NCBI GenBank assembly: GCA_029856145.1
Contig: JAHQWK010000004.1
Location: 32,001-96,000, forward strand
Direction: 5' to 3'
From: Promethearchaeia archaeon
GTDB lineage: Archaea > Asgardarchaeota > Lokiarchaeia > Sigyniarchaeales > SOKP01
DNA length: 64,000 nucleotides
The position numbers and the translations under genes are program-made. This document shows, in pieces, positions 3,371-19,775 of the stretch (its first letter is position 1; the number at the start of each line of letters is the position of its first letter). The notes beneath the pieces are model-generated. The model was given only the letters and a program-made list of their open reading frames with translations, was not told the DNA's origin and searched no databases.

Positions 3371-3631
3371 TTAATAAACAACTTTTGCTGGAATTCTCAA
3401 TTCTTTTTCAGTTTTACGAAAAGGATATATTATAAGGATATCTTTGAAAGTTTCTTTTGGGATTGATTCATCAATAGCGATCATATGATTCTCATAAAAT
3501 AAGAGCATTTTGTGTTCAAAAATTCTCTTATTGTGTAATTTTTTAGGGACATTAAAATTTTTGTCATACTTAAAACCTAAATATTTCTTAAAAAATATTT
3601 GGTAATCTAAAATTATGTCGTATTTCTCCAA
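3371..3631 (-). CDS. Hypothetical protein
   Basis: 86-aa TTG-start ORF; no recognised motif. Confidence 0.4.
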   Translation of the reverse strand: MEKYDIILDYQIFFKKYLGFKYDKNFNVPKKLHNKRIFEHKMLLFYENHMIAIDESIPKETFKDILIIYPFRKTEKELRIPAKVVY

Positions 3632-3907: not shown

Positions 3908-4741
3908 ATGTATGAATATAATATGATAGCAATGGATAAGGCTCAAAATATTAATACTAATTCAGAAAAGTTTCAAATGCTGGGATTTGGATTATTAAAT
4001 ATCTCAGATATAGAATCTGAAGGCACTTTTAAAATCATTCTTCAAAAAGGTATAGGAGTTCCTCTTATCCAAAATATTTTAGAACTCTATAAGAAAGAAA
4101 TTATAACCAAAAAACAAGGAAGCTCAATTATTCCATTAAATGAATTTACCATTCATATCCAATATTTCAATAATAAGGACAAAGAAATTTCTGTGATTTT
4201 GTATATGGAAGAAAAAGAACCAAGTATTGCGGTTAATTTTTCACAGCTTTACTTCCTGTCTAAAAAAATCAATAAAAAAATTCTTTCAAATGCTCCATTA
4301 TCTGAATTAGTCAAAATATTCGAAGACAAAATCAAGATTCCAAAATCTTCTGGAGTCATAGCTATCTTTGTTATTAGTTCCACAGGCAGTCCATTTCTTT
4401 CAAAAATTAATAAAAATCGCAACAATATAGCAGACCATGAAGTTCACATTGGTGGATTTATCTCTGCTTTGTTGTCGTTTTCAAATACAATTATTGGAGA
4501 AGAAACAGGGGCAAAATTGAAGGAAATAAACTTTGGGAATCAGCAATTTTACGTAATATCCAAAAGTAACGTAATTTTTGCCTTTTTAGTAGAAAATATG
4601 AATTCCTTGCTTCAAAGATATATGTATCTTATTGCAGATGAATTCATTTACGATTTCAACAATTATTTAAAAGGTTTTAATGGAGATGTAACTCCATTTG
4701 CATCTTTTGAAGATAAAATTAACCAATATTTTATTATTTAA
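3908..4741 (+). CDS. Protein with a C-terminal longin/sedlin-like domain; first gene of the che cluster
   Basis: C-terminal ~130 aa has the longin pattern IFVISSTGSPFLS...IGGFISALLSFS...LKEINFG...IFAFLV...FNGDVTPFASFEDKI; ends 20 nt before cheW. Confidence 0.7.
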   Translation: MYEYNMIAMDKAQNINTNSEKFQMLGFGLLNISDIESEGTFKIILQKGIGVPLIQNILELYKKEIITKKQGSSIIPLNEFTIHIQYFNNKDKEISVILYMEEKEPSIAVNFSQLYFLSKKINKKILSNAPLSELVKIFEDKIKIPKSSGVIAIFVISSTGSPFLSKINKNRNNIADHEVHIGGFISALLSFSNTIIGEETGAKLKEINFGNQQFYVISKSNVIFAFLVENMNSLLQRYMYLIADEFIYDFNNYLKGFNGDVTPFASFEDKINQYFII

Positions 4742-4761
4742 AAAATGAAGGTAAGAAAAAA

Positions 4762-5292
4762 ATGGTTCAAAAACAGGAATATGAAGATATGGATCAAATT
4801 TCCATCCTATCGTTTAAGATTGGTAGGGAAGAGTTCGTTATCGATCTCTTCGATGTGAAAGAAATAATTCAAGCAGGTCTAATAAGAAAATTACCAAAAA
4901 GCTTAGATTATATAGATGGAATCTATAATTACAGAGGGGAAATTATTCACATAATTAATTTAAAGAAAAAATTGAATTTGAATCAATATATTTTGTATTC
5001 AAGAAACTCCTCTATCGAAGAAGAATCAAGTACGTCGAAAAATTTCATTATAATTCTTAAAGTTGATAATAATCTGGTAGGATTTTATGTTGATCAAATA
5101 ATCAGTATTGATCATATTGATCCCACTGAGATTGTTGGATTAAGCCCAATCTTTCAAACTAATGTTGCTATGGAATATATTAAAGGAATTATTAACTTTG
5201 AACGGCGACCAAGAGTTATGCTTGATTTAAGCAAAATTTTTAGTGAAGTTGAGAAATTCAAAATTGAACAAGATTTATCATCATTAACATAA
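4762..5292 (+). CDS. cheW: Chemotaxis adaptor CheW
   Basis: LSFKIGREEFVIDL..VKEII, LPKS..YIDGIYNYRGEII, VGFYVDQI, YIKGI, LDL motifs. Confidence 0.93.
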   Translation: MVQKQEYEDMDQISILSFKIGREEFVIDLFDVKEIIQAGLIRKLPKSLDYIDGIYNYRGEIIHIINLKKKLNLNQYILYSRNSSIEEESSTSKNFIIILKVDNNLVGFYVDQIISIDHIDPTEIVGLSPIFQTNVAMEYIKGIINFERRPRVMLDLSKIFSEVEKFKIEQDLSSLT

Positions 5293-5312
5293 ATTAAAAA
5301 GGAGTTGATAAA

Positions 5313-5690
5313 ATGACAAATAATAAAAAAAAAGTTTTGATAGTTGATGATGCAGCCTTTACAAGGAACATGCTTAAAAATATAATAAACAAGATCGAAC
5401 AAATTGAAGTTATCGGTGAAGCTTCAAATGGAGTGGAAGCTATCTCTTTATACAAGAAATTAAATCCTGATTTAGTTACTATGGATTTGGTTATGCCTGA
5501 AAAGGGTGGTATTGAGGCAACTGAAGAGATTCTAAAAATTAACTCAAAAGCATTGATAGTAGTGGTTTCTGCACTCGGTCAGGAGGCTCTTGTACTTGAG
5601 GCAGCAAAAAAAGGGGCAAAGGACTTTATCCAAAAACCATTCAAAACAGAGCAAATATTAGAAGTTATGGATCGAATTTTAAAGAAATAA
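5313..5690 (+). CDS. cheY: Chemotaxis response regulator CheY
   Basis: Stand-alone REC domain: VDD, phospho-Asp in TMDLVMP, VSA, KPF; SD-like GGAG upstream; lies between cheW and cheA. Confidence 0.93.
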   Translation: MTNNKKKVLIVDDAAFTRNMLKNIINKIEQIEVIGEASNGVEAISLYKKLNPDLVTMDLVMPEKGGIEATEEILKINSKALIVVVSALGQEALVLEAAKKGAKDFIQKPFKTEQILEVMDRILKK

Positions 5691-5774
5691 CATCTCTCAC
5701 ATCTGGTTGAGATTCTGGACAATATCTTAAAAAAATAAAAAAAACAATGAAAAAAAAAAATTTAAGGTGATTAT

Positions 5775-7850
5775 GTGTCATCTAAAGACGATATAAAGCT
5801 TTTCATAAGTGAAGCCGAGGATCTGATTCAAAAAACGGAAGATGAAATTCTAAAATTAGAAGAAAATCCAAATGATTTAAAACCAATTCAGGAACTTTTT
5901 TTCACATTTCATGCACTAAAAGGATTAACAGCGATGGCAGGTTTTGACAACTTATCTAAATTTTGTCATCATTTTGAATCTTTTTTAGAAAATACTAAGG
6001 ATAAGAAAGAGTCTAAAATCAAAAGAGAAAATTTCATCGAAATGCTATTTGAGAGTATTGATGTATTAAGAAATGTCATAAAGAGAGTAAAAAAAGGAGA
6101 TTTAAGTGATATTGATAATAAATTTGTAGAAGATATTAAAAATAGTTTTGAAAGTTTTGAGAATGAGTATGATATCACTTTTATTCAGCCTTTAAACTCA
6201 GAGGAAGTTACCCAAATCCTTAAACAAAAAGATATCAAATCATTTAAGATATATATTCGCCTTGAAGAAACATGTGTTTTCAAAAAGGTAAGGTTATTTA
6301 TTATATTTAGAGCATTAAATGAAAATGGAAAAATTTGCTGGACTAATCCTGCTCCTGAAGATTTAGAAAAAGCTACTCTCAAAAATGAGTTTGAAATTTA
6401 CTTTTTTAGCAATAAAAATAAGGATAATATTTCTCATGTTTTAGATGAAATTCTTGAAATCGAAAGTATAGTTATTACTCCATTAAAATCTGAAGAATTC
6501 ATAAAAATAATTAATAGTCTTAAGGAAAAATGGGAAAATGAAAAACCAGAACCCTTAAGCGATGATTTCTTTGAAGATGATTTTGAAGAAGACGTTGATA
6601 CTCAAGAACTGGAGCGAGTTTCACAAATTGTAGGTGATTTCTCAGAAGATACCCTTAAAATAATGAGTGTTAAAGTTAATATTGAGTATATAGAGGAATT
6701 AATGAATTATTTTGGAGAATTAGTAATAATGAAGAATCATATCAATCAACTTCTAAAGGAAAAACAAGATAGAATAATCGTACGGTTAATAGATAAAATG
6801 GATAAGCCTTTTCTAGATATACAAGAAATACTTTTTAGATTAAAACTAGTTCGAGTTGATTCAACATTCAGAAAATATAAAAGACTTGTTCGCAATGTAG
6901 CAAATGAAACTGGTAAGAAAATAAAATTAATTCTTGAAGGAATAAATGTAGAAATTGATAGAAAAATCCTAGAAGAAATTAACACTCCGCTGGTTCAATT
7001 AATTAGGAATGCAATTTATCATGGAATCGAATCTCCAAGAGATCGAATTAAAAAACGGAAAATTGAAATTGGTATATTGAAAATAAAAACATTTAGAAGA
7101 GCAGGATCCATTTTCATAGAAGTTCAAGATGATGGCGCGGGGCTTAATTATGATACAATAAGGGAAAAGGTTGTGAAAAAAGGTTATTATGACTCAATTG
7201 AAGTGGAACAACTAGCAAACGAGGATTTACATAAGTTTATACTAATGCCCGGGTTCTCAACACTTTCAGAAGCAGATATAATCTCTGGTAGAGGTATGGG
7301 TTTAGCAATCGTGGCTGAAAAAATAAAAGAATTAGGTGGTGATTTTACTATTCAATCTCAAGCTGGTGTTGGTACAAAATTTACAATCATCGTTCCATTT
7401 ACAAGAGCAATATTAAAAGCACAACAAATTCAGATTTCTGATGATTTATTTGCAATTCCAACTGAAAACATTAAACAAATATACTTTTTCAATCCAAGTC
7501 AAGTTGAATATGTAGATGGCCAACAATTTTACAAGATAAATTCAAAATTAATGCCAATTATTCATTTAGATGAGTATTTAAATATGGTAGAAAAAAGTAC
7601 AACAAATTCTCATAAAAAAATTGCAATATGGTGTCAAGGAGATGAGGATAGTTCAGCAGTGTTTATTGCAGATAAACAATTACAACAATTAGATGTAGTT
7701 GTGAAACCATTCAAGTCTAACTATTCAGATTCACGGGATATTTTAGGATCAACAATTACAGGAGAAGGTTCAATATGTCTAATTATCGACGTTTTAAGTA
7801 TAATTTCATCTATTTTAAATGAAAATATAATATCAAATTTAAATTTATAA
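5775..7850 (+). CDS. cheA: Chemotaxis histidine kinase CheA (Hpt-P2-dimerisation-HATPase-CheW)
   Basis: Hpt FHALKG, P2 region KKVRLFIIFRAL, LMNYFGELVI, IRNA..HGIE, DDGAG, PGFST, SGRGMGL, C-terminal CheW domain; SD AGGTGA before the GTG start. Confidence 0.96.
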   Translation: MSSKDDIKLFISEAEDLIQKTEDEILKLEENPNDLKPIQELFFTFHALKGLTAMAGFDNLSKFCHHFESFLENTKDKKESKIKRENFIEMLFESIDVLRNVIKRVKKGDLSDIDNKFVEDIKNSFESFENEYDITFIQPLNSEEVTQILKQKDIKSFKIYIRLEETCVFKKVRLFIIFRALNENGKICWTNPAPEDLEKATLKNEFEIYFFSNKNKDNISHVLDEILEIESIVITPLKSEEFIKIINSLKEKWENEKPEPLSDDFFEDDFEEDVDTQELERVSQIVGDFSEDTLKIMSVKVNIEYIEELMNYFGELVIMKNHINQLLKEKQDRIIVRLIDKMDKPFLDIQEILFRLKLVRVDSTFRKYKRLVRNVANETGKKIKLILEGINVEIDRKILEEINTPLVQLIRNAIYHGIESPRDRIKKRKIEIGILKIKTFRRAGSIFIEVQDDGAGLNYDTIREKVVKKGYYDSIEVEQLANEDLHKFILMPGFSTLSEADIISGRGMGLAIVAEKIKELGGDFTIQSQAGVGTKFTIIVPFTRAILKAQQIQISDDLFAIPTENIKQIYFFNPSQVEYVDGQQFYKINSKLMPIIHLDEYLNMVEKSTTNSHKKIAIWCQGDEDSSAVFIADKQLQQLDVVVKPFKSNYSDSRDILGSTITGEGSICLIIDVLSIISSILNENIISNLNL

Positions 7851-7912
7851 TTAAAATTTTTTTTACAAATAACAAATTTATCAAATGAAGAAATACTTGG
7901 AGGAAAAATAAA

Positions 7913-9934
7913 ATGGGTTTTAAAAAGATTGACCATGACGAATTAAAAACAAAAATTAGCCCAAATTTTCTTGGCATCCCTATAAGGGAAGGTGGAAAGT
8001 TAGTACAGAAAAGTCAAAGAGAAAAGAAAATTGAATCTAGTTATACAGGTTCAATGTCAGAAGTATTAATATTAAATGAAGAATTTTTAGAATTCCAATA
8101 TCAAAATGATGGAACAAGAAAAGCAGTTACAGGTAACGGAAATATCTCAATATTTAATAATTCTGTTAAAGATAGAATTTGGGATGCAAATTTACAGTTT
8201 TCAGGCTCACAATTTGATAATCAAGAGAAAGAAAACAATATAAATTTAGGGATTTTTGAGCCTAGTTCAAATAAAATATTAAAATATGAAATTGTAAATT
8301 CCGATGATTTACCGGATTTAATAAAAGTAAATGAAAATATTGAAGTTCTGAGTGAAGATATTACTCAAGAAGGGTTAGAATTTCCTGAAAATGAAGAATT
8401 AAATGTATGTAATAAAAAACATTATTTACTAGTAATTGGAAAAGAAAATAAGGTAAAATTTTTAATTGATATAGTAAATGTCTCAAATTCGATGTTAGAA
8501 AATATCAAGTTTAAGAAATTATTTGTTAATAATTTTTATGACTTAGAATTTGACTGTAGCAAGAGCAAAGAATTTAAATTTACTAATAATTCTGTAGAAT
8601 GTACTATAAACGGTCTAAACCCTGGAGAAAAAGCAGAATTAACAATCACCGCTAATATTTTCCCTAAGAAGAAGGAAAATATTAAAACTGGTAAAATCGA
8701 AATAACCTACAACTTATCATCAAACGTAATTTCAGGCGTGAAAATCAATCAATTCTCAGCATATTCTCATGCAATGCATGCTATTGAGAAAGTAGAGAAA
8801 AATGATGCTCCAAATCATTGGGAATGTTCATTAATTTTCGAAAACCATAGTGACTTTAAATTGAAGTTAAATTCAATTCTGATCTATGATAAGACCAAAT
8901 CGAAAAAAATTTTAGATTTAGATTTTAGTACATCTGGTACTACAAAAATTAATCCTCGTGGAATATATAAAACCCAACATTTTAATTTGATTGATGAAAA
9001 AGAACCTATTTTCTCAAGAAAAGTCGAATATTCTGTTGATTATAAAACAGAGAACAATTCAATGATTACCACGAGATTTGATGACATTATCTTTAAAATA
9101 GTTAATATTACGATAAAAAAGAAATTACCTGAACAAGAAATTAAATCATTTGAGGAGACTACACTAAATTCTGAAATTATTATAAACAACCAAGGTACTG
9201 TTCCAATTAAAGGACTTCGAATAGTTGAAAAAATTCCTGAAGATTTCTTGCCACCAAGAAATTTATCTGATTTTACACTGTATAAATCATCTGGTAAACT
9301 AGAAATCGATGATATTGAATTAAATTTAAGTCCAGATGATGATGATCCCTCACATGAGCATATTATTGAAATAAGTATTAATTTAAAAAATGATACTTCA
9401 AAATCAGTTATTAGTACAGAAGATTTCTTAGAATTAAAATATCCATTTAAAGCAATTACTCCTAATTATAAAAAAGATTACGATTTCCCTGTTAAAGTCT
9501 ACGCTTATTATCCGATGTATGAAAAATCTGAAGTAGAAGGGCTTAGGGGACATTATGTTTTAATGGATGATCTCTCTAGTAAGGATACGTCTTCTTTAAA
9601 AATCACACATAAACGGCGGAAATTAATGATTGGAAAACAAATCTTTCCTGGAAGGAGTAGTGATGAATTTGCTATTTATATTGTGGCAAAGAACGGTTCA
9701 AATATTAAACTTAGTGATGTAGACATTACAGATGCTTTTCCAAATTCTTTTGAACTAATTTCCTCAAATGTAGAACATAAGATTAGCAAATCTAAAAATA
9801 ACGGAGAACAAAAAATTTCTTTCACAATCGATTCACTCCTACCTTATCAAGAAAAAGAGATAATGTATTATCTAAAAAGCTTAAGCGGAAAGGATGTATC
9901 ACAATCAGAATTAGAGTCATTTTTTGTTGGATAA
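7913..9934 (+). CDS. Large cytoplasmic beta-sandwich repeat protein (several DUF11/Ig-like modules)
   Basis: Repeated modules such as ITIKKKL..EIIINNQGTVPIKGLRIVEKIPEDF and IGKQI..IYIVAKNGSNIKLSDVDITDAFPNSFELI; no signal peptide or TM segment; SD GGAGG. Confidence 0.6.
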   Translation: MGFKKIDHDELKTKISPNFLGIPIREGGKLVQKSQREKKIESSYTGSMSEVLILNEEFLEFQYQNDGTRKAVTGNGNISIFNNSVKDRIWDANLQFSGSQFDNQEKENNINLGIFEPSSNKILKYEIVNSDDLPDLIKVNENIEVLSEDITQEGLEFPENEELNVCNKKHYLLVIGKENKVKFLIDIVNVSNSMLENIKFKKLFVNNFYDLEFDCSKSKEFKFTNNSVECTINGLNPGEKAELTITANIFPKKKENIKTGKIEITYNLSSNVISGVKINQFSAYSHAMHAIEKVEKNDAPNHWECSLIFENHSDFKLKLNSILIYDKTKSKKILDLDFSTSGTTKINPRGIYKTQHFNLIDEKEPIFSRKVEYSVDYKTENNSMITTRFDDIIFKIVNITIKKKLPEQEIKSFEETTLNSEIIINNQGTVPIKGLRIVEKIPEDFLPPRNLSDFTLYKSSGKLEIDDIELNLSPDDDDPSHEHIIEISINLKNDTSKSVISTEDFLELKYPFKAITPNYKKDYDFPVKVYAYYPMYEKSEVEGLRGHYVLMDDLSSKDTSSLKITHKRRKLMIGKQIFPGRSSDEFAIYIVAKNGSNIKLSDVDITDAFPNSFELISSNVEHKISKSKNNGEQKISFTIDSLLPYQEKEIMYYLKSLSGKDVSQSELESFFVG

Positions 9935-9983
9935 ATAGAAAAAAAAATAATAAAATTTAAGAAAAAAAAATGGAGGAAGTATT

Positions 9984-10835
9984 ATGAGACTACAATATTA
10001 TGAAACAATGGATGATAAATCGAAAGAATATGTATTGTATCTTATCGAGCAGATTGTTCCACAATTTACTAAAAGTGAACTGGATACCTTTTTACAAGAT
10101 CTTACTATAAAACCTACTAAGAAAAGTAAGAGTTCAAAATCAAAATCAGATCAAAAATACATTCAAATTGGGAATGATATTGGAAAAACTGCTGATTTAT
10201 CCAAACTAACTAAAGAACAATTAAGATTATGTTTTCAAATATTTATAAGTAGAGAAAAAAATGATACATTTGCAGTAAAGTGGCGTTTTTATCAATACAT
10301 TAAATACGTGTTAAATCTAAATATAAAATCAGTAAAAATAAATCTTGATCCAAATATTGATCGATTATTAGATTTTATTATTGAAACTGTCGATAAGGAA
10401 ATAATTCTAGTTTTATGCTATGATGTTTTAGAATTAAAAGACTTTAATACAGCAATAAATCAATTAAATGAATTTGCAAAAAAACAAAATTTAATTCCTG
10501 ATAGGATTATTTTTACGACAAGTAAATCATTCCGGAATATACCAATTGATAGTCCTATTAAAATCATAAATAAGGAAATAGAACCAGAGTTATGGATCGA
10601 ATGGATTGAAGAAAATTGCCCTTTCAATAAAGAAGACTTGTTAATTTTAAATAACTCTGAATTAAAAGTTGCAGGTTTTAATTTTACCAGTACAGACGAT
10701 TTATTAAATTATATTTTTAAGTATTCAAATGGCGGGGGTCAAATTTCAATTTATAAGCAATTAGATTTTTTTACTGAAGTTAGTGAGGAGGAACCCGAAG
10801 TAGAATTAATTTGGAAAGGAATTATGTTAAAATAA
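9984..10835 (+). CDS. Hypothetical protein in the che cluster, possibly a degenerate PD-(D/E)XK-like fold
   Basis: 283-aa ORF with SD GGAGG; LDFIIET..EIILVLC resembles a nuclease core but lacks the ExK motif. Confidence 0.55.
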   Translation: MRLQYYETMDDKSKEYVLYLIEQIVPQFTKSELDTFLQDLTIKPTKKSKSSKSKSDQKYIQIGNDIGKTADLSKLTKEQLRLCFQIFISREKNDTFAVKWRFYQYIKYVLNLNIKSVKINLDPNIDRLLDFIIETVDKEIILVLCYDVLELKDFNTAINQLNEFAKKQNLIPDRIIFTTSKSFRNIPIDSPIKIINKEIEPELWIEWIEENCPFNKEDLLILNNSELKVAGFNFTSTDDLLNYIFKYSNGGGQISIYKQLDFFTEVSEEEPEVELIWKGIMLK

Positions 10836-10878
10836 TAATACTCAAAAAGAAGAGGATAAAATACAAGAGGTATAAGAT

Positions 10879-12858
10879 ATGATAAAAAGCGAAACAGAAG
10901 GAATTGAGTTTGGAGAAAGTGTAAATGTTGTAATAATTCAAGTTCTTGATGAGAAATATCTCATTGAAGTAGAAAATGTTAAAGAAATATATGTCCCAGG
11001 AGATAAAATAGTTCCAATTCCATTAACAGAAAAAAGTATAGTTGGTATCATTAATATTAGGGGAGAGATTTATTCAATCATTTCATTAAGACATAATATT
11101 AATGATAATGATGTTGATTATGGGTTGAGTGATAAATCAAGAATTCTATTATTAGAATATAAAGATTTAAAAATTGCATTGTTAGTAGATGCAGTAATAG
11201 GAGTTAAAGATATTCCTTTTTCAGTCTTTAAAAAACAGGGCACGATTGTAAAAACTAATATTGATTTTAGATTAATTAAACTAACAGGCATTTTTCAAGA
11301 TGAATCATTAATATTATTAGATCTAGATGCTTTAATTTTACCCTACATTAAATCCTTAGGTAGAAAAATAGAGAAAAAGGTAGAAGCAAAACCGAAAATT
11401 ATTGGAGGACCTAAAGTAAAACCCAAACTATCTCCTAAACCGACACCTACAGTTGAATCCACAGTTGTAATCCCTCAGGAAACCTACGTTCCAATGAACT
11501 TATCATCCATTCCTGAAGATGAAATTGGCAAGGGGGTTTCTTTATCAGCTGAACAAGAAGATATACTCAAAGAAATAGGCAATATTGGTGCTGGAAATGC
11601 GGTCACAGCCTTATCTCGATTAGTTAAAAAGAAAATTGATGTGACCTTAACTGATGTAGGAATAATACCTTTAGATGAATTGCCAGAACAATTTGGTGGA
11701 TCTAAAGAGAAGGTATGTGGAATTTTCTGCCATATAGATAAACCATCTCAAGCAACTATTTTAAATATTTTCGAAATGACTCCTTTGATGCAAATGATTG
11801 CAGATTTAGCAGGAAAAAAATCTAAAATCAATCCAAGTAAAGTTAAAACTAAAAAAGATCTTGATGATTTTGCAGTTTCTACAATTGTAGAAATGGGAAA
11901 TATTATGGCGGGGCATTATGCTTCAGCACTAGCAGATTTATTAGGTACAAAATTAATGATTGACATTCCTGAATTTACGATGAGTGAAGCTGGAGAGATT
12001 GGAGAATTTCTAACTAAAGAGTTGAAATCAATTGCTGAATTTTTCATAATAATCAAAACTTCAATAAAAGTCGCCGATTTGAAACTTAAAGGAATGTTTT
12101 TCTTTATCCCTGATCTTGAAACTTTGAAAATATTTTTCGACAAACTAGGAATAGAGCATGAAATATCTATCAAAAGTTTAAAAACTCAGAAAACACTTGA
12201 GCTAATAGATGTTTCTAATATAAAACTCACAGAAATTCAAAGAGATGCTTTACAAGAAGTTGGTAATATTGGTGCAGGAAATGCGGCTAATGCATTAGCT
12301 CAAATGATTAATAAAAGAGTTGATATAAATATCCCATCTGTTGAAATGGTTGAATTAGATGAGTATGCTAATACAATTAGTAATAAGAATGAAAAACTCT
12401 TAGTTGCTTGGAGCAATGTTATTGGTAAAACAAGAGCTACAGTTTTAACATTGTTTAACATTAAAGATGCAATTGATATAACATCCATAATCTTAGATGA
12501 TAGAGACAAGAAACAAATTGACTTAAGGAAGAAAATTATTATGGCATCAGATTTTCCAGAGCTTTATCATAGTGCAATTTCAGAACTAGGTCACATCTTG
12601 GGAAGCCATTATGTAAGTGCAATAGGTGATCTATTAGGCCTGCGACTCATGACCGAGCCCCCTGATGTCTCTGTCGATACAGGAAACCAATTATTCGAAA
12701 TATTAAAAGAGGAAATTGGTTTACTTAAGAAATTATCGTTAGTTATCACAACGAGCGTTATAATCACAGATATCAAAATTACAGGAACGTTCTTATTCAT
12801 ACCTAATTTAGAAACATTACAAGAATTATTGGATGCACTTTTAAGGTTTTATTCATAA
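10879..12858 (+). CDS. CheW-CheC-CheC fusion protein
   Basis: N-terminal CheW domain (VKEI, IVPIP, VGIINIRGEI, LLVDAVIGV), Pro/Lys linker, then two CheC domains (EIGNIGAG/EMGNIMAG and EVGNIGAG/ELGHILGS). Confidence 0.9.
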   Translation: MIKSETEGIEFGESVNVVIIQVLDEKYLIEVENVKEIYVPGDKIVPIPLTEKSIVGIINIRGEIYSIISLRHNINDNDVDYGLSDKSRILLLEYKDLKIALLVDAVIGVKDIPFSVFKKQGTIVKTNIDFRLIKLTGIFQDESLILLDLDALILPYIKSLGRKIEKKVEAKPKIIGGPKVKPKLSPKPTPTVESTVVIPQETYVPMNLSSIPEDEIGKGVSLSAEQEDILKEIGNIGAGNAVTALSRLVKKKIDVTLTDVGIIPLDELPEQFGGSKEKVCGIFCHIDKPSQATILNIFEMTPLMQMIADLAGKKSKINPSKVKTKKDLDDFAVSTIVEMGNIMAGHYASALADLLGTKLMIDIPEFTMSEAGEIGEFLTKELKSIAEFFIIIKTSIKVADLKLKGMFFFIPDLETLKIFFDKLGIEHEISIKSLKTQKTLELIDVSNIKLTEIQRDALQEVGNIGAGNAANALAQMINKRVDINIPSVEMVELDEYANTISNKNEKLLVAWSNVIGKTRATVLTLFNIKDAIDITSIILDDRDKKQIDLRKKIIMASDFPELYHSAISELGHILGSHYVSAIGDLLGLRLMTEPPDVSVDTGNQLFEILKEEIGLLKKLSLVITTSVIITDIKITGTFLFIPNLETLQELLDALLRFYS

Positions 12859-12882
12859 AAAATTTACTAAAAGTAATCTAAA

Positions 12883-12896
12883 TTTTTTTTCTTTTT
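12883..12896 (+). terminator. Candidate archaeal oligo-T terminator after cheW-cheC-cheC
   Basis: TTTTTTTTCTTTTT 25 nt after the stop codon. Confidence 0.4.
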
Positions 12897-12945
12897 AAAA
12901 ATTTAAAATAAAAAACAAGAATATCCAAATCAAATATAAATTCTC

Positions 12946-12952
12946 TATAAAA
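12946..12952 (+). promoter_or_regulatory. Candidate TATA box for a leaderless gelsolin-cheR-cheB-cheD-cheC-cheB transcript
   Basis: TATAAAA begins 28 nt upstream of ATG 12974, which has no SD; AT-rich background limits certainty. Confidence 0.4.
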
Positions 12953-12973
12953 TACAAAGAAACAATCGATCTC

Positions 12974-13519
12974 ATGTTAAAAACTAGTTATTACGATTAT
13001 ATTTATAAAGTTGATGGAGAAACTCTTAAACTTCGACCAGAGAAAATTTTTGAAGCTGGGGGGGTATATCTAATTATAGATAAAGAATTAAAATTGATTT
13101 GGATATGGGCAGGTAATCATTCACGTTTATTTCACAGATACATGGCCGCAAATTATGCTGGGAAACTAAAAACAAAGAAAAAATTCTATAACTTCAAATA
13201 TGAAGTCATAAAGCAAGGGCTTGAACCTACTGAATTTCATATAATCTTTAAGGAAATCAAAGAGAACAATGCTGAATTGAATTATCCTGGACAATCTAGA
13301 CATGGAATGATTAAAAATGAGACTTCTGGTTCAACTGGTTTACCAAGCCAGAAAGTCGAATCAGAAATTACGGAAAGTAATTTAAATTTATCAAGATCAG
13401 TGAAATCTCGTATTAAAAAGATTTTATCTGAAATTAAAGAAATACAAATGCATATAAAATATTCAATGAATCATATTCAACAACGTTTTGCTGAAATTGA
13501 AAAGGTATTAGATAAATAA
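12974..13519 (+). CDS. Gelsolin/villin-like single-domain protein with a C-terminal coiled coil
   Basis: IYKV...VYLIID...IWIWAG..S...AA.YA..L...VIKQG.EP.EF is the gelsolin-repeat consensus; C-terminal heptads IKKILSEIKEIQMHIKYSMNHIQQRFAEIEKVL. Confidence 0.85.
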   Translation: MLKTSYYDYIYKVDGETLKLRPEKIFEAGGVYLIIDKELKLIWIWAGNHSRLFHRYMAANYAGKLKTKKKFYNFKYEVIKQGLEPTEFHIIFKEIKENNAELNYPGQSRHGMIKNETSGSTGLPSQKVESEITESNLNLSRSVKSRIKKILSEIKEIQMHIKYSMNHIQQRFAEIEKVLDK

Positions 13520-13530
13520 AGTGTTTAGAA

Positions 13531-13737
13531 GTGATACGAATTGATGATATTCAAATTGATGAGGATTACTATGACCTTCTAATTCACTTATTAATGAAAA
13601 CGACTGGATTGAATTTAGACTATTATGGAAGAAATTTTGTAGAAAAAAGAATTAAATCCAGAATGATACGAGTTAACTCTCAGAGAGACTTAAACTTAAT
13701 AGATTCATCAAATTGCATATATATGAAAGATTATTAA
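13531..13737 (+). pseudogene. cheR: cheR remnant: N-terminal domain fused in frame to a C-terminus-like tail, SAM-binding domain missing
   Basis: YDLLIHLLMKTTGLNLDYYGRNFVEKRIKSRMIRVN matches the CheR N-terminal domain; ends ...NCIYMK like CheR C-termini; only 68 aa; sits directly before cheB. Confidence 0.8.
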
Positions 13738-13742
13738 AGAAA

Positions 13743-14888
13743 ATGTCAATTAATGTATTAGTTGCAGAAGACTCAAGTTTTCAGAGAAAATTGATTGCAG
13801 ATATGTTATTAACAAGTGAGGAAATTGCAACTGTAGATATTGCAAGAAATGGGAGAGAAGCAATTGAAAAAATTGAAAATACAAATCCAGATGTATTAAT
13901 ATTAGATTTAATGATGCCAGAAGTTGATGGAATAACCGTATTCAAGTTTCTTTCAGAACATTATCCAATACCTACAATTATATTTTCTGCTAAGAATCCA
14001 GAAACATTAGAACCTTCCGTTCAAACATTATTAATGGGGGCTTTTGATTTTTTACCAAAACCTCAAGGTTTATGGGAAGAGGAATTCCCAAAATATAAAG
14101 AAAAATTAGTTTCTAGTACTTTATATGCTGGAAAAATTAAAAAAACCTATGAGAAGCGTAATCTTTTAATTAAAAAATCAGCTGCTAAACCTCCTTCTTT
14201 GGATGCATATAGCGAGCAATATCAGATAAGTATAAAATCAAAACCAAAAATAATAGAGGTTCCAAAGGAAAAAATAATGAAAAGAAGTAGGATACAATCC
14301 AATACAATAGTCATTGGTACTAGCACTGGGGGCCCTAGAACTTTAAAATCAATATTAAAAGAAATCCCTAAAGATTTTCCTAGCCCAATTTTAATAGTAC
14401 AGCATTTAGATCCATACTTCATGAAAGAACTTTCAAAATCTCTAAATCAAATATGCAATATTGAAATTAAAATTCCTGTAAATGGAGAAAAAATTCTTCC
14501 TGGAAAAGCTTATCTTAGTCCAGGAGGAAAACACATGAAAGTTGTTCTGAGAAATAATATACCATGTATTAAAATATTTAAAGGCGAACCAGTAAATTTC
14601 TGCATGCCTTCTGTGGATGTATTGTTTTTTTCAGCAGCAGAAGTATATAAAAATCAAATACTTGGGATTTTATTAACCGGATTAGGAGAGGATGGGGCTG
14701 CCGGATTAGAAGCAATCAAAAAACAAGGTGGCAAAACTATCGCTGAATCAGAGCAAACGTGTGTAGTTTATGGTATGCCTAAAGCAGCTGTAAAAAGAGG
14801 AGCTGCTAACTTTATTGTCCCAAACTATGAAATTAAAGATCACATGATGAGATTTACTAAAAGAAAGGAAATTAACATAACAAATTAA
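13743..14888 (+). CDS. cheB: Chemotaxis methylesterase/deamidase CheB (REC plus esterase), copy 1
   Basis: REC AEDS..LDLMMP..KP; catalytic GTSTGG, VQH, LLTGLGEDG, VVYGMP; start moved to ATG 13743 to avoid overlap with cheR. Confidence 0.95.
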   Translation: MSINVLVAEDSSFQRKLIADMLLTSEEIATVDIARNGREAIEKIENTNPDVLILDLMMPEVDGITVFKFLSEHYPIPTIIFSAKNPETLEPSVQTLLMGAFDFLPKPQGLWEEEFPKYKEKLVSSTLYAGKIKKTYEKRNLLIKKSAAKPPSLDAYSEQYQISIKSKPKIIEVPKEKIMKRSRIQSNTIVIGTSTGGPRTLKSILKEIPKDFPSPILIVQHLDPYFMKELSKSLNQICNIEIKIPVNGEKILPGKAYLSPGGKHMKVVLRNNIPCIKIFKGEPVNFCMPSVDVLFFSAAEVYKNQILGILLTGLGEDGAAGLEAIKKQGGKTIAESEQTCVVYGMPKAAVKRGAANFIVPNYEIKDHMMRFTKRKEINITN

Positions 14889-14912
14889 TAATTTAACTTT
14901 TTAAATTTAAAG

Positions 14913-15452
14913 GTGAATAATATTAAAACCTATGGACGTATTGAAAAAATGGATAGAAATGGTGAGGCTTTCTTACCCATAGGTCATTATTTTATCACAA
15001 ATTGTAAGAATAAACCAAAAAATATTCATCCAAAAGTATCAATTTATGGATTAGGCTCTTGTATTGCTCTAATTCTTATTGATTTCAAAAATAAAGTATG
15101 TGGAATGTCTCACATTTTACTTCCTAAAGCCCGTCTAAATAAAACAATAGATTATCCTCATAAATATGCAGATCTCTCTTTAAAATTATTAATTCAAGAT
15201 CTAAAAAAGCATGGAGCTGTGAAAGAAAACATAATGGCAATCATAGTAGGGGGTTCAAAAATTTTTAATTTAGATGAAAATTTTATGGGGATTGATAATA
15301 CTAAAGCTATTAAAGAACAATTGGAAAAATTAAAGATTAAAGTTATCGGAGAAGATACTGGAGGATCTGAAGGGAGGGGGATAATATTTGATACTAAAGA
15401 TTTCGCTGTTTACGTTAAATTAACAAGAGAACAAAATTATAAAAAAATTTAA
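14913..15452 (+). CDS. cheD: Chemoreceptor glutamine deamidase CheD
   Basis: GLGSCIAL, GMSHILLP, KYAD, GGSKIF, EDTGG..GR. Confidence 0.93.
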   Translation: MNNIKTYGRIEKMDRNGEAFLPIGHYFITNCKNKPKNIHPKVSIYGLGSCIALILIDFKNKVCGMSHILLPKARLNKTIDYPHKYADLSLKLLIQDLKKHGAVKENIMAIIVGGSKIFNLDENFMGIDNTKAIKEQLEKLKIKVIGEDTGGSEGRGIIFDTKDFAVYVKLTREQNYKKI

Positions 15453-15496
15453 TATATAAAAAGAGAATGTCATAAAAATTGGAAGAGGAAATAAAA

Positions 15497-16165
15497 ATGA
15501 ATGAAAAGGTCACAAATCAATCTGCTAAGATAAACCTAACAGAAGCACAATTGGATATGTTAAAAGAAATTGGCAATATCGGTTCTGGACATGCAATAAC
15601 AGCACTTTCTGAGATATTGAATAAAAATGTAGAAGTTTCATTAACATCAGCAGAAATACATTCCTTTTGGAAAGTTCCAGATCTGTTTGATAATCATAAT
15701 ATAGAAGTAGTAGTTATATATTCTGAAATTCCCTTTAATTCGGATCTCGCAATTATCCAAATATTTCCCAAAGAATCAATAATTAATCTGATAAATTTAT
15801 TAAACGATTATGATAAAAAATCCATAGATAATGTAAATAGCAATAATGATTTGGACGATTTCTCCTATAGCATTATAAATGAAATCGGTAATATTTTGAG
15901 TGGCCATTATGCTAGTGCTTTAGCAGATTTGTTGTCAATTAAACTAATCCCAAAGGTGCCAAAAGTAGCAATTGATACATTAAATGCCATCCTAAATTGC
16001 ATTATCGCAAAATATTCCCAATTGATAGATTATTTGATATTAATAAATACAAAATTAATAGTTTCAGATTTGAATATAAATGGAACAATTTGCCTTATTC
16101 CAAGTATTGAAATTCTAAGGAGTTTATTTGAGATTTTAAACGTAAAATATGATATGAACTTATAA
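15497..16165 (+). CDS. cheC: CheY-P phosphatase CheC
   Basis: DMLKEIGNIGSGHAITALS and EIGNILSG..P motifs; SD GAGG before ATG 15497 (TTG 15479 is an alternative start). Confidence 0.93.
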   Translation: MNEKVTNQSAKINLTEAQLDMLKEIGNIGSGHAITALSEILNKNVEVSLTSAEIHSFWKVPDLFDNHNIEVVVIYSEIPFNSDLAIIQIFPKESIINLINLLNDYDKKSIDNVNSNNDLDDFSYSIINEIGNILSGHYASALADLLSIKLIPKVPKVAIDTLNAILNCIIAKYSQLIDYLILINTKLIVSDLNINGTICLIPSIEILRSLFEILNVKYDMNL

Positions 16166-16178
16166 GTAGGAGTTTTAT

Positions 16179-17555
16179 ATGTCGATAGACGTATTAATAG
16201 CCGATGACAGTATGTATTTAAGAAAGAGTATAGCAGATATCCTTAAAGAACATGATTTAATAAATATAGTTGATTATGCTAAGGACGGAATTGAAGCGGT
16301 TAAATTTGTAAAAAAATACAGCCCTGATGTTTTAGTTTTAGACTTAGTGATGCCTAAAATGAACGGATTAGATGCATTCAAACTAATTATGGAAGGCCAT
16401 CCAACTCCTACAGTTATTCTATCAGCTATTAGCCCTAAAAATTTGGATTCCTCTATTCAAGCATTGTTAATGGGAGCTTTTGATTATATTATAAAACCTG
16501 GAGGCCTTGGTGCTAAAGATTTGCCTAGGTTTCGTGAAGAATTACTTGCTAAAGTATTATTAGCTTCACAATCTCAGATAAAGAGAATTTTTAAGACAGA
16601 AGAAAATTTATTAAGTAAGCGTAAATCACTTCGCCAAGAAATGATCGATCGAATTTTTGATTTTGGACAATACATAAATCAACTAAAACCTATTGAAGAA
16701 ATTGAAGAAAAACGGGAAATTGACTCTTTTGAAATAATGAAAGTAAAGGCAATTCTCAAGGATGAAATTAAACCAGCAGTAATTGATGAAACCTCCAGTA
16801 AAACAGAAATCAAATCAACTAAAAAACTAGAGGGTGAAATCAGTTCAAAAATACAATCAAAATCAAGTGAATCATTAAAAATACTTAAAACAAGAAAACA
16901 GAAATTAGCTTCTGTATTAGATAATAAAAAGAAAGAAGTTGCATCCATTCCTGATCTTTCCCCTGTTAGAGGATTTGCTTTAACTTCAAATGTTATAGTT
17001 ATGGGTGCTAGTGTGGGGGGCCCCAGAACAATTACTACAATCTTAAGAGAAATTCCCAGAAATTATAACACTCCAATTTTAATTGTTCAACACTTATCTT
17101 CTCATTTTACAGAAGCTTTTGCAGATAATTTAAATATGGAATGCGAATTAGAAATAAAAGTTGCGAAAAACGGAGATCAACTTCAATCAGGTCAAGTTTA
17201 TATCGCACCTGGAGATAAGCATATGGAAATTACCGTAGATAATAAAACACCTTCAATTAAAATCTATAAGGGAGCACCAGTTAATTTTTGTATGCCTTCT
17301 ATCGATGTTTTATTTTTTTCTGCGGCAAAAATTTTTAGAAATCGAGCTATGGGGATACTTCTAACCGGTATGGGTTCTGATGGTGTTGAAGGGTTAGGAG
17401 CAATAAAAAGAGTAGGCGGAAAAACAATCTCCGAGGCAGAGGAAACATGTATACTATATGCAATGCCAAAATTCGCAGTAGAAAAAGGTTTCGCTGATTT
17501 TATCTTGCCAAATTATGAAATTAAAGATCAAATTACTAAATTCATTAAAAATTAA
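16179..17555 (+). CDS. cheB: CheB copy 2 with a long charged interdomain linker
   Basis: REC ADDS..LDLVMP..KP; roughly 130-aa Lys/Glu/Ser-rich linker; GASVGG, VQH, LLTGMGSDG. Confidence 0.93.
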   Translation: MSIDVLIADDSMYLRKSIADILKEHDLINIVDYAKDGIEAVKFVKKYSPDVLVLDLVMPKMNGLDAFKLIMEGHPTPTVILSAISPKNLDSSIQALLMGAFDYIIKPGGLGAKDLPRFREELLAKVLLASQSQIKRIFKTEENLLSKRKSLRQEMIDRIFDFGQYINQLKPIEEIEEKREIDSFEIMKVKAILKDEIKPAVIDETSSKTEIKSTKKLEGEISSKIQSKSSESLKILKTRKQKLASVLDNKKKEVASIPDLSPVRGFALTSNVIVMGASVGGPRTITTILREIPRNYNTPILIVQHLSSHFTEAFADNLNMECELEIKVAKNGDQLQSGQVYIAPGDKHMEITVDNKTPSIKIYKGAPVNFCMPSIDVLFFSAAKIFRNRAMGILLTGMGSDGVEGLGAIKRVGGKTISEAEETCILYAMPKFAVEKGFADFILPNYEIKDQITKFIKN

Positions 17556-17585: not shown

Positions 17586-19775
17586 TTACCAAGATATTCC
17601 TTTAAAAAACTTAATCTCTTGAATTAATTTTTGAGATTCGTGTTGTGGAATCTCCATAAATGCATAAAATTCATTCTGCCAAAATGCTCTTCCGGAACTA
17701 GTTGACCGAATCTCTTCAGCAAATTTAATTGAATGTCTCACAGGTATTAAAATTTCCATAACTGCTTGATATTCTTTGTCTTGGTCTATATTCTTAATCT
17801 TAGTAGAATATTTTGATAGTAATGTAATAGTATTTTTAATGTAATCAGGTGGAAGTTGGATGATGGTATGATATATTGGCTCTAAAAGAATTAAATCCGC
17901 TTCAATTAATCCAGTCTTGATTGCCTCATAAAACATAGAAGATAATTCGGTAAAAACATTTTCATGTGGAATATTTTGAATATTCAAATCTTCAATTGTA
18001 ATTTTAATTTCTGCTAATTTTTCACTACAAAGTGGACCATTTAAATGGATTTTTTCAATTATCTCAGAGATTGCATTTTTATAAAATTCATTTAATTCAA
18101 ATTCTCCCTTGTATATCAATATGTTTTGATCATAATCACTCATCCAGAAATTTTCGATCTCTTCTTCACTAAGACATGTTTTTTCGCTCAAGATCTCTTT
18201 AAATTTTATGATAGGTTTTATTGTTTTATAATCAATATTGCGAAAAAACCTTACAGTTTTATCATCTAGCCGTTCAATTTTCAATTTAAGAGAACTTTGA
18301 CTATTGGGAGAGTTTACTGATATTAAAGAAGAATGATTTCGACATGATTCTTTAAAAACAGCTCTAGGTTCAGAAGTAGAAACATTTACTCCTCTTTTTC
18401 CAATTTCATTTGCAGATACTTCCAAATGGAGAGGACCTGCACCCGACAAGAGAAATTCACCATTTTCTTCATTTATATCGAATTTCAGATTTGGATCTTC
18501 AATTAACAGATTTTCTATTAATTCTTTCATTTTATCTAGATCTCTTAGATATTCTGGTTCAATTGAAACGGAAACGACGGGGCTTGTAACATATTTCACA
18601 CTTTCAAATGGTACCATGTCATCAATATGGTTACTGTCTATTATTGTTTCACCACTTTTTATCTTCTTGAGGCCTTCTATTGCAAGGATATTACCAACAG
18701 GTATGGTTTCTACTTGCTCCCTTCTTTGTCCCATGAAAATGGCAATTCGTTGAATTTTCTCATAAGTATTTTCATTTAAAAGAAAAATTTCTTTTTTGTT
18801 TGTACAGCTTCCAGAAAAAATCCTTCCCGTTGATATTAATCCGTGTTTATCAACTTGTACTTTACTTAAACACACAATTAAAGGACCTTTTGGGTCACAA
18901 TTTAGCATAGCTTTTCCTAATTCAGAATTAATATCTCCATCCCAGATTTTTTCAATTCTATATTTTTGTGCTTCTATTGGATTTGGTAAATGATCCACAA
19001 CCATCTCCAATATAGCTTTATGAATTGGAAAATATGTAGCCAAATCAGCATAAGTTTCCTTTGTATAGGTATCTTTATTATACCTCTCTCTAATACCTAT
19101 AAATTTCAAGTTGCTTTTTTCTATAATGTTTAATGTAAAACCCCATTTATGAAGAGCTGAACCAAATGCAACATTTCCTGCTAAAGGTGATACTTTCCAC
19201 CTCTTATTAAAAGGATGTTCAGCATATCTTTCTATTAGAGTGTTGAATGACTTAATTATTCGTATATACTTCTTTTTTATATCTTCATCAGAAAGCTTCA
19301 ATTCTCTAATTAGGCGATCTACTTTATTAATGAATAATACTGGTTTAACTCCTTCTTGGAGGGCTTGTTTAATTACAGTTTCAGATTGTGTAATTACTTC
19401 TTCAACTGCGTCGACTACCACTACCACTCCATCCACTAATCTTAATGCGCGAGTTACTTTTCCACTAAAATCTAAATGACCCGGTGTATCAACTAAATTA
19501 ATAAGAAAGGGTTCATGCCCTTCAAGAGATTTCTCATAATATAAAGAAATGTTTGCTGATTTCATTGTAATGCCTCGTCTTTGTTCTTCTTCAAGAAAAT
19601 CTAAAGCACGAGCTTCACCTGCCAAATCTGGTGATAAAAATCCTGCTTCACTCAGTAAAGAATCAGAGAGTGTTGTTTTTCCGTGGTCGATGTGCCCTAC
19701 TAAAGCCATACACCTTATTCTAGTAGGGTCCTCCATTAAATTTAGTATTTCCACAATTTCTTTCCTTCGAGGCAT
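17586..19775 (-). CDS. Elongation factor 2 paralog (aEF-2p type)
   Basis: GHIDHGKTT, RGITM, DTPGHLDF, NKVD, GSA, LLEPIY; domain IV loop reads NIPHENVF rather than HRG. Confidence 0.9.
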   Translation of the reverse strand: MPRRKEIVEILNLMEDPTRIRCMALVGHIDHGKTTLSDSLLSEAGFLSPDLAGEARALDFLEEEQRRGITMKSANISLYYEKSLEGHEPFLINLVDTPGHLDFSGKVTRALRLVDGVVVVVDAVEEVITQSETVIKQALQEGVKPVLFINKVDRLIRELKLSDEDIKKKYIRIIKSFNTLIERYAEHPFNKRWKVSPLAGNVAFGSALHKWGFTLNIIEKSNLKFIGIRERYNKDTYTKETYADLATYFPIHKAILEMVVDHLPNPIEAQKYRIEKIWDGDINSELGKAMLNCDPKGPLIVCLSKVQVDKHGLISTGRIFSGSCTNKKEIFLLNENTYEKIQRIAIFMGQRREQVETIPVGNILAIEGLKKIKSGETIIDSNHIDDMVPFESVKYVTSPVVSVSIEPEYLRDLDKMKELIENLLIEDPNLKFDINEENGEFLLSGAGPLHLEVSANEIGKRGVNVSTSEPRAVFKESCRNHSSLISVNSPNSQSSLKLKIERLDDKTVRFFRNIDYKTIKPIIKFKEILSEKTCLSEEEIENFWMSDYDQNILIYKGEFELNEFYKNAISEIIEKIHLNGPLCSEKLAEIKITIEDLNIQNIPHENVFTELSSMFYEAIKTGLIEADLILLEPIYHTIIQLPPDYIKNTITLLSKYSTKIKNIDQDKEYQAVMEILIPVRHSIKFAEEIRSTSSGRAFWQNEFYAFMEIPQHESQKLIQEIKFFKGISW

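Follow-up and report, generated by a model that had tools for sequence, protein, structure and literature searches.

The only che cluster of a Lokiarchaeia metagenome-assembled genome (97% complete), at 3908-17555 of the 64,000-nucleotide stretch analysed here (the window), holds four extra genes among its chemosensory core. In dozens of genomes these four are inherited with the che set, and judged by sequence they are candidates, as yet unproven, for steering actin-based crawling. Most che-bearing Asgard genomes offer no archaellum for CheY to switch; the four small soluble proteins singled out by the cluster, which accompany the Che core in inheritance, are open to in vitro work. A literature search, which was not exhaustive, found no description of a linkage between che, gelsolin and the other accessory genes.

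Cluster layout and chemosensory core

According to the initial annotation, the cluster consists of 13 consecutive + strand elements with short gaps and many SD motifs. All 13 are found in place (Table 1) and the gaps are indeed short (5-115 nt), but an SD-like motif lies 5' of only 7 of the 13 genes, the gelsolin and longin genes being among those without one. Pfam and NCBIfam confirm the identities of cheW, cheY, cheA, the CheW-CheC-CheC fusion, both cheB genes, cheD and cheC; the best NCBIfam models are CheA_Halo and CheY_Halo, both scoring below cut-off. A scan with a sigma-70 promoter and terminator model, which is ill-suited to archaea, gave chance-level results.

Table 1. Elements of the che cluster, with positions in the window
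Feature	Position	Strand	Evidence and remarks
Longin-like protein, 272 aa	3923..4741	+	Open frame from 3908; start placed from orthologues
CheW	4762..5292	+	PF01584 E 2.6e-25
CheY	5313..5690	+	PF00072; nearest solved structures 1tmy/4iga, both annotated as CheY, E 1e-47
CheA	5775..7850	+	Hpt, P2, dimer, HATPase and CheW domains
673-aa soluble protein	7913..9934	+	AlphaFold pLDDT 82; PF01345; VIA Z 16.9
U283, 283-aa orphan	9984..10835	+	Model pLDDT 79; single copy in genome, no paralogue
CheW-CheC-CheC fusion	10879..12858	+	PF01584 and four PF04509 stretches
Single-domain gelsolin, 181 aa	12974..13519	+	Profile vs PDB, best match 7c2f E 3.5e-7
cheR remnant	13531..13737	+	49 homologous codons, internal deletion, unrelated tail
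CheB (receiver and methylesterase)	13743..14888	+	PF00072, PF01339; PRK00742 above cut-off; Ser-His-Asp motifs present
CheD	14913..15452	+	PF03975 E 2.6e-22; Cys and His motifs present
CheC	15479..16165	+	PF04509
Second CheB, long linker	16179..17555	+	PF00072, PF01339; PRK00742 above cut-off

CheA is present in a single copy and belongs to a long-branch Lokiarchaeia clade (type A; support 100/100 in a CheA tree without an outgroup) carried by 47 of the 161 class genomes. Residues D12, D13, D58, S86 and K108 of CheY are invariant in an alignment of 37 sequences, and its alpha4-beta5 face is almost so. Our search bears out the earlier statement that the 64-kb window contains no MCP, cheF or arl gene. 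The claim that there is no receptor holds for the window but not for the genome, in which three membrane MCPs are intact and a fourth survives as a remnant, all outside the cluster (rough tip-to-methylation-site spacing 50-71 residues). Two CheR proteins are also encoded away from the cluster. The cheR remnant within it is real: over 49 codons it reaches 92% identity to the CheR of a relative, after which comes an internal deletion of ~0.8 kb; an assembly artefact is excluded, as contigs from two studies span the junction without differences.

One of the closest known systems is that of Euryarchaeota, in which CheA/W/Y/R/B/C/D signal with the CheF adaptor and the ArlCDE archaellum switch (PMC9126983). 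The same core and adaptation proteins are present here, including a CheA with P1-P5 and a CheY with its phospho-acceptor Asp, with MCPs and CheR elsewhere and CheB, CheC and CheD in the cluster, and the cluster CheY is closest to the solved CheYs 1tmy, 4iga and 6er7. Unlike in that system, neither CheF nor an archaellum was found in this genome, CheW and CheC are fused as CheW-CheC-CheC, four non-Che genes are embedded, and the MCP and CheR genes are dispersed.

The whole-genome check for CheF and an archaellum, on which the earlier proposal of a non-motor output hung, recovered neither. A search with the CheF model PF04283, positive in 3 known archaea used as a control, gave no match in this 97%-complete genome or in any of the 47 type-A genomes; the same is true of archaellin (PF01917), and ArlJ, ArlF and ArlG were not found in this genome. 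Since the Pfam T2SSF model was negative despite a divergent pilus locus, HMM absence alone was distrusted, and Arl proteins of a relative (G055) were used as queries. They returned only a 23% match to a pilus-type ATPase and a weak RecA/KaiC-like match. The single CheF match in the class comes from G051, which is not a type-A genome; there, a CheF-like segment joined to leucine-rich repeats lies at the end of a contig.

The lack of a motor is not special to this cluster, because archaellins occur in only 2 of 84 CheA-bearing Asgard genomes; their absence is the rule, with or without accessory genes. Most CheA-bearing Asgard genomes have neither archaellins nor accessory genes, and therefore another output must exist there. 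One published study reports che gene sets in 27 of 97 Asgard MAGs and, from tomography, putative arrays; it describes neither an output nor a linked actin regulator (PMC9834061).

The accessory proteins

The 673-aa protein had been annotated as Ig-like, which its match to DUF11 (PF01345, 38.8 bits vs a cut-off of 24.6) supports; what is new is a mu-homology-like domain in the same chain. An N-terminal peptide (residues 1-25) is followed by this domain (45-391) and by two further DUF11/CLIPPER-type Ig domains. When the AlphaFold model is compared with solved structures, mu-homology domains take ranks 1-8, led by AP2 mu2 (VIA Z 16.9, rmsd 3.5, 226 aligned), and the next unrelated row has Z 13.1; Foldseek TMt values against mu-homology domains are 0.65-0.68. 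The protein is thus predicted to fold like an adaptin mu-homology domain, a new observation. The whole two-lobed fold of adaptin mu and COPI delta is aligned (226 of 252 residues), although identity is 11-15%, there are two extra Ig domains, and the N-terminal longin domain of adaptins is missing: residues 1-45 hold no more than a short peptide, and the longin-like protein has its own gene. AP-domain homologues in Asgard archaea have been noted before (PMC10307638). The mu-like protein is not Asgard-specific, because it falls in a wider archaeal DUF11 family with relatives in Thermoplasmatota and Methanobacteriota.

Although the DUF11/CLIPPER domain is shared with surface proteins, the 673-aa protein appears neither exported nor membrane-anchored, with no transmembrane segment or signal-like N-terminus detected (highest 19-residue hydropathy 0.97). 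An invariant Lys and acidic residues, looked at for a Lys-Asn isopeptide bond, are present. The N-terminal peptide is common to che-linked mu-like proteins and absent from 10 non-che paralogues. It has no DALL of the EIDALL type, the CheY-P docking motif defined near the N-terminus of FliM/FliY (PMC9126983), and homology of the peptide to FliM was rejected, as no FliM match was obtained in the PDB.

The core of U283 resembles the PD-(D/E)xK fold, weakly so (best Z 8.2, with many rows of the superfamily at Z 5-7.5). The (D/E)xK catalytic motif is absent: D130 is conserved, but neither an acidic residue nor a Lys is conserved in the strand that follows.

The gelsolin-like gene stands as annotated. 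Its best PDB match by profile is Thor ProGel, the next eight are also of the gelsolin family, and D36, W45 and G47 of the DWG motif are invariant. The single-sequence Pfam match is weak (E 0.028), and PF00626 is matched by 38 of 78 family members at E<=0.05. The domain (~10-95) is followed by a variable linker and a conserved helical C-terminal tail, a 1DGelX-like layout; column conservation is 0.96 in helix 50-66 vs 0.28 in the linker. With Thor ProGel and 1DGelX it has in common one gelsolin domain, the DWG motif and a ProGel-like long helix, and its helical tail may correspond to the predicted coiled-coil domain X of 1DGelX. It differs in forming a separate subfamily confined to che clusters. 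Binding, bundling or severing of actin is established for the Thor relatives (PMC7444086), and its own actin activity is putative. The genome also encodes an actin-like protein.

For the longin-like gene, the annotation receives weak profile support only (of 14 family members, 2 match Fuz_longin_1, at E 5.3e-5), and the resemblance is limited to the C-terminal half, which 13 other proteins of the genome match. The single sequence has no Pfam match, and no PDB sequence match was found. An MCP gene lies directly upstream of the longin gene in several relatives.

In relatives, a Roadblock-GTPase gene usually follows cheC directly; here it is lost, leaving a 13-nt gap. It encodes a Roadblock-Ras-like fusion without the catalytic Gln. 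An assembly artefact is excluded by contigs of two studies that bridge the junction. A gene at C9:147833 was rejected as the relocated orthologue; it is ~50% identical to all cluster copies and is a paralogue.

Conservation of the accessory genes

In relatives, too, the che genes are accompanied by the gelsolin, longin and Ig-like genes, a point on which the proposed link to actin could have failed. The gelsolin orthologue is found in 41 genomes, all within the 47 with type A CheA, and in none of the 114 other class genomes; of the six type-A genomes without it, four have contig ends, one an internal deletion, and one is a true absence. Nearly all gelsolin loci (96 of 97) adjoin che or MCP genes. 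When close and distant loci of the cluster are compared, the distant ones keep the inner genes in 11/11 cases and the flanking genes in 1/11 and 1/8, while cheR, cheB, cheD, cheC and the GTPase gene are more often lost or moved; the Roadblock-GTPase gene is present at 20/23 close loci vs 4/8 distant loci. U283 matches occur in 47 genomes, all with CheA, and are confined to che clusters, which the long distant contigs prove to be in 9 of 9 cases. These locus counts are not independent, because for the most part they trace back to a single block inherited at the same place in the chromosome.

A second, distant cluster type, whose CheA is 24-28% identical, also carries the mu-homology gene, U283 and, after U283, the CheW-CheC fusion (CheW-CheC-CheC, as here). 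To judge from these sequence comparisons, the mu-homology/U283 pair, rather than gelsolin, is the most deeply conserved accessory module, and gelsolin is confined to a single subtype of the cluster. The distant type has no orthologue of the cluster gelsolin, nor has G060, which speaks against the gelsolin as effector.

Possible outputs of the system

The initial reading, that the Che pathway may steer actin protrusions or membrane remodelling, is partly supported: it is strengthened by the lack of CheF and an archaellum and by genes that travel with che; it is weakened in that receptors exist elsewhere and gelsolin is limited to one subtype. We tentatively favour a working Lokiarchaeia chemosensory system with a non-rotary output, in which MCPs and CheRs encoded elsewhere would feed the CheA/W/Y/B/C/D system and a dedicated accessory module would stand where CheF would be. 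The mu-homology/DUF11 protein and U283 would form the adaptor that receives CheY-P, possibly via the N-terminal peptide peculiar to che-linked copies. The effector, in the present subtype, would be the single-domain gelsolin, which would change Lokiactin filaments at the cell cortex and so bias the growth or retraction of protrusions; the Roadblock-GTPase and the longin protein may be optional modulators. That CheY-P, via the mu-homology protein and U283, controls the cluster gelsolin and Lokiactin to produce chemotactic crawling is a rather doubtful extension. All positive support for the output model is gene linkage among related genomes. Also counting against it are the majority of CheA-bearing Asgard genomes, which have neither archaellins nor the accessory genes, the division of the cluster into two parts in G005, and the low identity of the mu-like fold to adaptins together with its place in a wider archaeal family.

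A flagellum-free chemosensory system that directs surface motility is known in the Myxococcus Frz pathway, which acts via MglA/MglB. The Roadblock-Ras-like fusion of the cluster's relatives is reminiscent of it, but this gene is missing from the cluster of this genome and from clusters of the distant type. In favour of the actin reading, Asgard cells crawl by actin-dependent protrusions; against it, most cells of the filmed crawler L. ossiferum moved randomly (PMC13716822). Its putative genome, G055, also speaks against the actin reading: it has archaellum genes, and its three che clusters, of other CheA lineages (25-30% identity), all lack the accessory module (gelsolin, mu-like and U283 genes). 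Were the output model borne out, it would be the first demonstration of a chemosensory pathway with actin or a coat-adaptor-like protein as its target: in an Asgard archaeon, actin motility of the eukaryotic type would be steered by a phosphorelay of the bacterial type. It would also offer a concrete model of sensing-to-cytoskeleton coupling before eukaryotes.

It is less likely, though possible, that the accessory proteins serve the receptor array instead: the mu-homology protein would bind MCP tails as a cargo adaptor does, the gelsolin would tether arrays or carry them along actin into protrusions, and the CheY-P target would lie elsewhere. This accounts for the linkage as well as the output model does, and solved complexes among the top matches have mu-homology domains bound to the cytoplasmic tails of membrane cargo. 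Moreover, one relocated gelsolin copy sits amid MCP genes, a longin paralogue in this genome also sits after an MCP gene, and L. ossiferum has putative arrays at the membrane (PMC9834061). However, G055 forms or encodes arrays with che clusters that lack the module, and a search for a different output gene linked to the cluster found none. Even in such a weaker role, anchoring or sorting arrays, the module would count as a new accessory system.

An output to gene expression or a phosphorelay, such as chemosensory systems of alternative function have, with U283 as a nucleic-acid-binding effector and gelsolin as a co-regulated passenger, seems unlikely. It would suit the nuclease-type fold of the U283 core, the PAS histidine kinases and receivers frequent at the flanks of both cluster types, and the second, closely related CheY paralogue encoded outside the cluster, but that fold match is weak and without its catalytic motif, and the cluster has no DNA-binding response regulator. 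Furthermore, a complete set of adaptation proteins (B/R/C/D) is in keeping with rapid temporal sensing.

Slightly less credible still is that the non-che genes have nothing to do with the che system, having been picked up once as passengers and kept by inertia ever since. Gelsolin, longin and GTPase genes are common in these genomes (~7 gelsolin-domain, 14 longin-like and about 60 small-GTPase-like genes in this one), the longin gene is kept in two genomes that have cleanly lost the che block (G030 and G034), and block deletion alone predicts co-loss. Against this, U283 is found only in che clusters and spans two CheA lineages that do not group as sisters in the tree (which has no outgroup), the peptide marks the che-linked mu-like proteins, and the gelsolin orthologue was never found in a genome without type A CheA.

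Bacteria are well known to control type IV pili through chemosensory systems, and a Tad/type IV-like pilus locus exists elsewhere in the genome (G000:C20:131237-137362; ATPase, pilin-like gene, membrane protein, A24-like peptidase), but control of this pilus is the least probable output, as its ATPase is never linked to the cluster and is present in 117 of 161 class genomes irrespective of che genes, whereas the single-contig G005, which bears the cluster, gave no match to it.

Cluster composition and linkage in relatives

Every one of the 13 elements that the initial annotation assigned to the cluster was located in the window, and Pfam and NCBIfam agree on the identities of CheW, CheY, CheA, CheW-CheC-CheC, the two CheB proteins, CheD and CheC; catalytic motifs were seen by inspection. 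The cheR remnant also stands, with 49 codons retained and about 0.8 kb then lost; contigs of two studies read across the deletion, and likewise from cheC into cheB, with no differences. Of the "many" SD motifs, SD-like sequences were found at seven of the 13 genes. The widest intergenic gap (115 nt) lies upstream of the gelsolin gene. The window corresponds to G000:C3:32001-96000, in an assembly that comprises 3.55 Mb in 32 contigs (completeness 97%, contamination 5.4%). Named homologues come from Promethearchaeota/Lokiarchaeia, and the sequencing runs in which the stretch is found derive from marine sediment and subsurface metagenomes.

CheA of the kind encoded here (type A; identity at least 48%) occurs in 47 of the 161 Lokiarchaeia-class genomes compared. 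The gelsolin orthologue is present in 41 genomes, all among these 47; the six type-A genomes without it comprise four contig ends, one internal deletion and one true absence (G060). As proposed, gelsolin, longin and mu-like genes are linked to che genes in relatives: che or MCP genes lie at 96 of the 97 loci fetched by gelsolin alone (the exception is a 2-kb contig), and at distant loci, i.e. those with gelsolin identity under 60%, cheA, mu-like and U283 (the 283-aa protein) are retained in 11/11 and longin in 10/11; since the genomes are kin and the cluster occupies one site across the genus, these counts reflect few events; they show genes being kept as loci rearranged rather than being recruited independently. 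Flanking genes of the distant loci are kept in 1/11 and 1/8, and cheR, cheB, cheC (5/8), cheD (6/8) and the Roadblock-GTPase gene (4/8) are less stable there. In one case a relocated gelsolin copy lies between MCP genes, and two genomes have lost the cheW-to-cheB block and kept the longin gene alone.

The accessory proteins

A profile built from 78 homologues of the 181-aa protein matches Thor ProGel 7c2f first (E 3.5e-7), with 2DGel, villin and CapG next. The DWG motif does not vary, and conservation is highest in a long helix. Judged from its sequence, the gene is a gelsolin of the single-domain kind; its layout, a lone gelsolin domain with a helical tail, is reminiscent of 1DGelX, a protein whose actin severing needs no calcium (PMC7444086).

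In the predicted model of the 673-aa mu-like protein (pLDDT 82), residues 45-391 align with whole mu-homology domains (AP2, AP3, AP4, AP1, COPI delta, SGIP1; Z 16.9-13.9), followed by two predicted Ig domains; no export signal was found in the protein. Asgard homologues of adaptor domains have been published in general terms (PMC10307638). The mu-like protein has relatives in Thor, Thermoplasmatota and Methanobacteriota, and non-che paralogues in 5/5 Asgard genomes checked. All 18 aligned che-linked mu-like proteins begin with M-x-F, mostly followed by K/R-K/R-h-x-x-x-E-L/I and later Gly-Pro or Gly. This peptide is absent from ten non-che paralogues and has no detectable likeness to FliM; it probably marks a che-specific contact. 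U283 is single copy, with a weak PD-(D/E)xK-like core (Z 8.2) from which the catalytic motif is absent. The longin likeness of the 272-aa protein comes from a weak profile match.

Distant U283 homologues sit in a second cluster type (type B), in four class genomes and 9/9 long contigs. Type-B CheA is 24-28% identical to type A, which forms one long-branch clade in an unrooted CheA tree and is not joined there by type B. No gelsolin orthologue was found in type-B clusters; in one of them, a gelsolin of another kind lies 1.6 kb past cheR. The gelsolin is hence a subtype-specific addition. Because mu-like and U283 are conserved in both cluster types and the peptide is che-specific, these two proteins are the best candidates for the role that CheF has elsewhere.

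Receptors and motor genes

The initial annotation had described a cluster without receptor, CheF or archaellum genes. The first part does not extend to the genome: of four MCP matches elsewhere in it, three are intact and have transmembrane segments, and the fourth is a remnant. The second part fared better, as neither CheF nor archaellin was found in the genome, and queries with proteins of a relative's archaellum locus found no ArlJ, ArlF or ArlG. The genome further encodes two full CheRs, of which one is a fusion with a CheD domain, as well as a third CheB and another CheY-like protein, the second. Thus, the Che system is complete and dispersed.

None of the 47 type-A genomes has an archaellin or CheF. 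Among 400 Asgard genomes, clear archaellins occur in only 2 of the 84 bearing CheA, so the missing rotary motor is general; a non-rotary output is thereby likely, yet the lack is not peculiar to this cluster. Nine che loci of other classes contain no gelsolin, mu-like or U283 genes. G055, a single contig of 6,035,313 bp, has an archaellum locus, che clusters without the accessory module and no CheF match; the sole CheF match in the class is a fusion in G051. The Promethearchaeia genome has a divergent Tad/type IV-like locus next to L3/L4 ribosomal genes. Pilus-type ATPases occur in 117/161 class genomes irrespective of che genes, and none was found in a single-contig che-positive genome.

Possible output

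The cluster is real and conserved, and our literature search found no paper describing this gene linkage. Asgard che genes and putative arrays have been published (PMC9834061), and the consulted part of a report on actin-dependent Asgard crawling mentions neither chemotaxis nor archaellum genes (PMC13716822). The genome encodes an actin-like gene. Tentatively, and at somewhat less than even chances, the mu-like/U283 adaptor module would be dedicated to a motorless chemosensory system whose output, in the type-A subtype, would reach the actin cortex. The main rival reading, that the accessory proteins instead position or sort receptor arrays, is less likely, at perhaps one chance in a few.

Coordinates and gene orders of features in the window, in the Promethearchaeia genome (G000) and in fetched loci (L) of Asgard genomes (G)
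Feature	Position	Observation
86-aa ORF	window 3371-3631 (-)	short match to ~215-aa gene at same place in relatives; probably a decayed copy
CheA N-box region	window 6999-7031	type-A RNA-I-Y-HG, conserved in most orthologues, versus canonical RNA-x-D-HG
Elongation factor 2-like gene	window 17586-19775 (-)	convergent with cluster; marks its site genus-wide, including empty site in G030 and G034
Type-B cluster		MCP-cheW-cheY-cheB-cheA-cheD-mu-like-U283-cheW/cheC fusion-cheR
Fourth MCP match	L004:1429-1761	receptor C-terminal half only; overlaps broken histidine kinase gene on opposite strand
CheR-coiled coil-CheD fusion	L007:1351-3402	CheD part has GLGSG in place of GLGSC; preceded by longin-like plus winged-helix gene
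Longin-like paralogue	L002:245-2304	directly 3' of second MCP gene, the order at cluster head in relatives
CheA-like ~550-aa proteins	L163:2810-4453; L164:7952-9646	stand-alone; CheA-like N-terminus, two P2 domains, no kinase match; not part of any che cluster; one such protein in G083, which lacks a full CheA
Archaellum-like locus of G055	L141:7404-12980; L140:10219-12360	arlG/F, arlH, arlI, arlJ by inspection; three tandem archaellins
CheF-like segment of G051	L145:4317-5573	fused to leucine-rich repeats; contig end
Tad/type IV-like locus	G000:C20:131237-137362 (L034:9238-15363)	ATPase, pilin-like gene, membrane protein, A24-like peptidase
Mu-like orthologues	L023:2622-6284; L060:4083-7106; L154:780-3926	charged coiled-coil insertion of 300-550 residues inside domain, as in many orthologues
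Non-che mu-like paralogue	L030:10020-13984	followed by BBS7/BBS2-like beta-propeller gene
Non-che mu-like paralogue	L031:11230	97-aa ProGel-like gene 1.7 kb away
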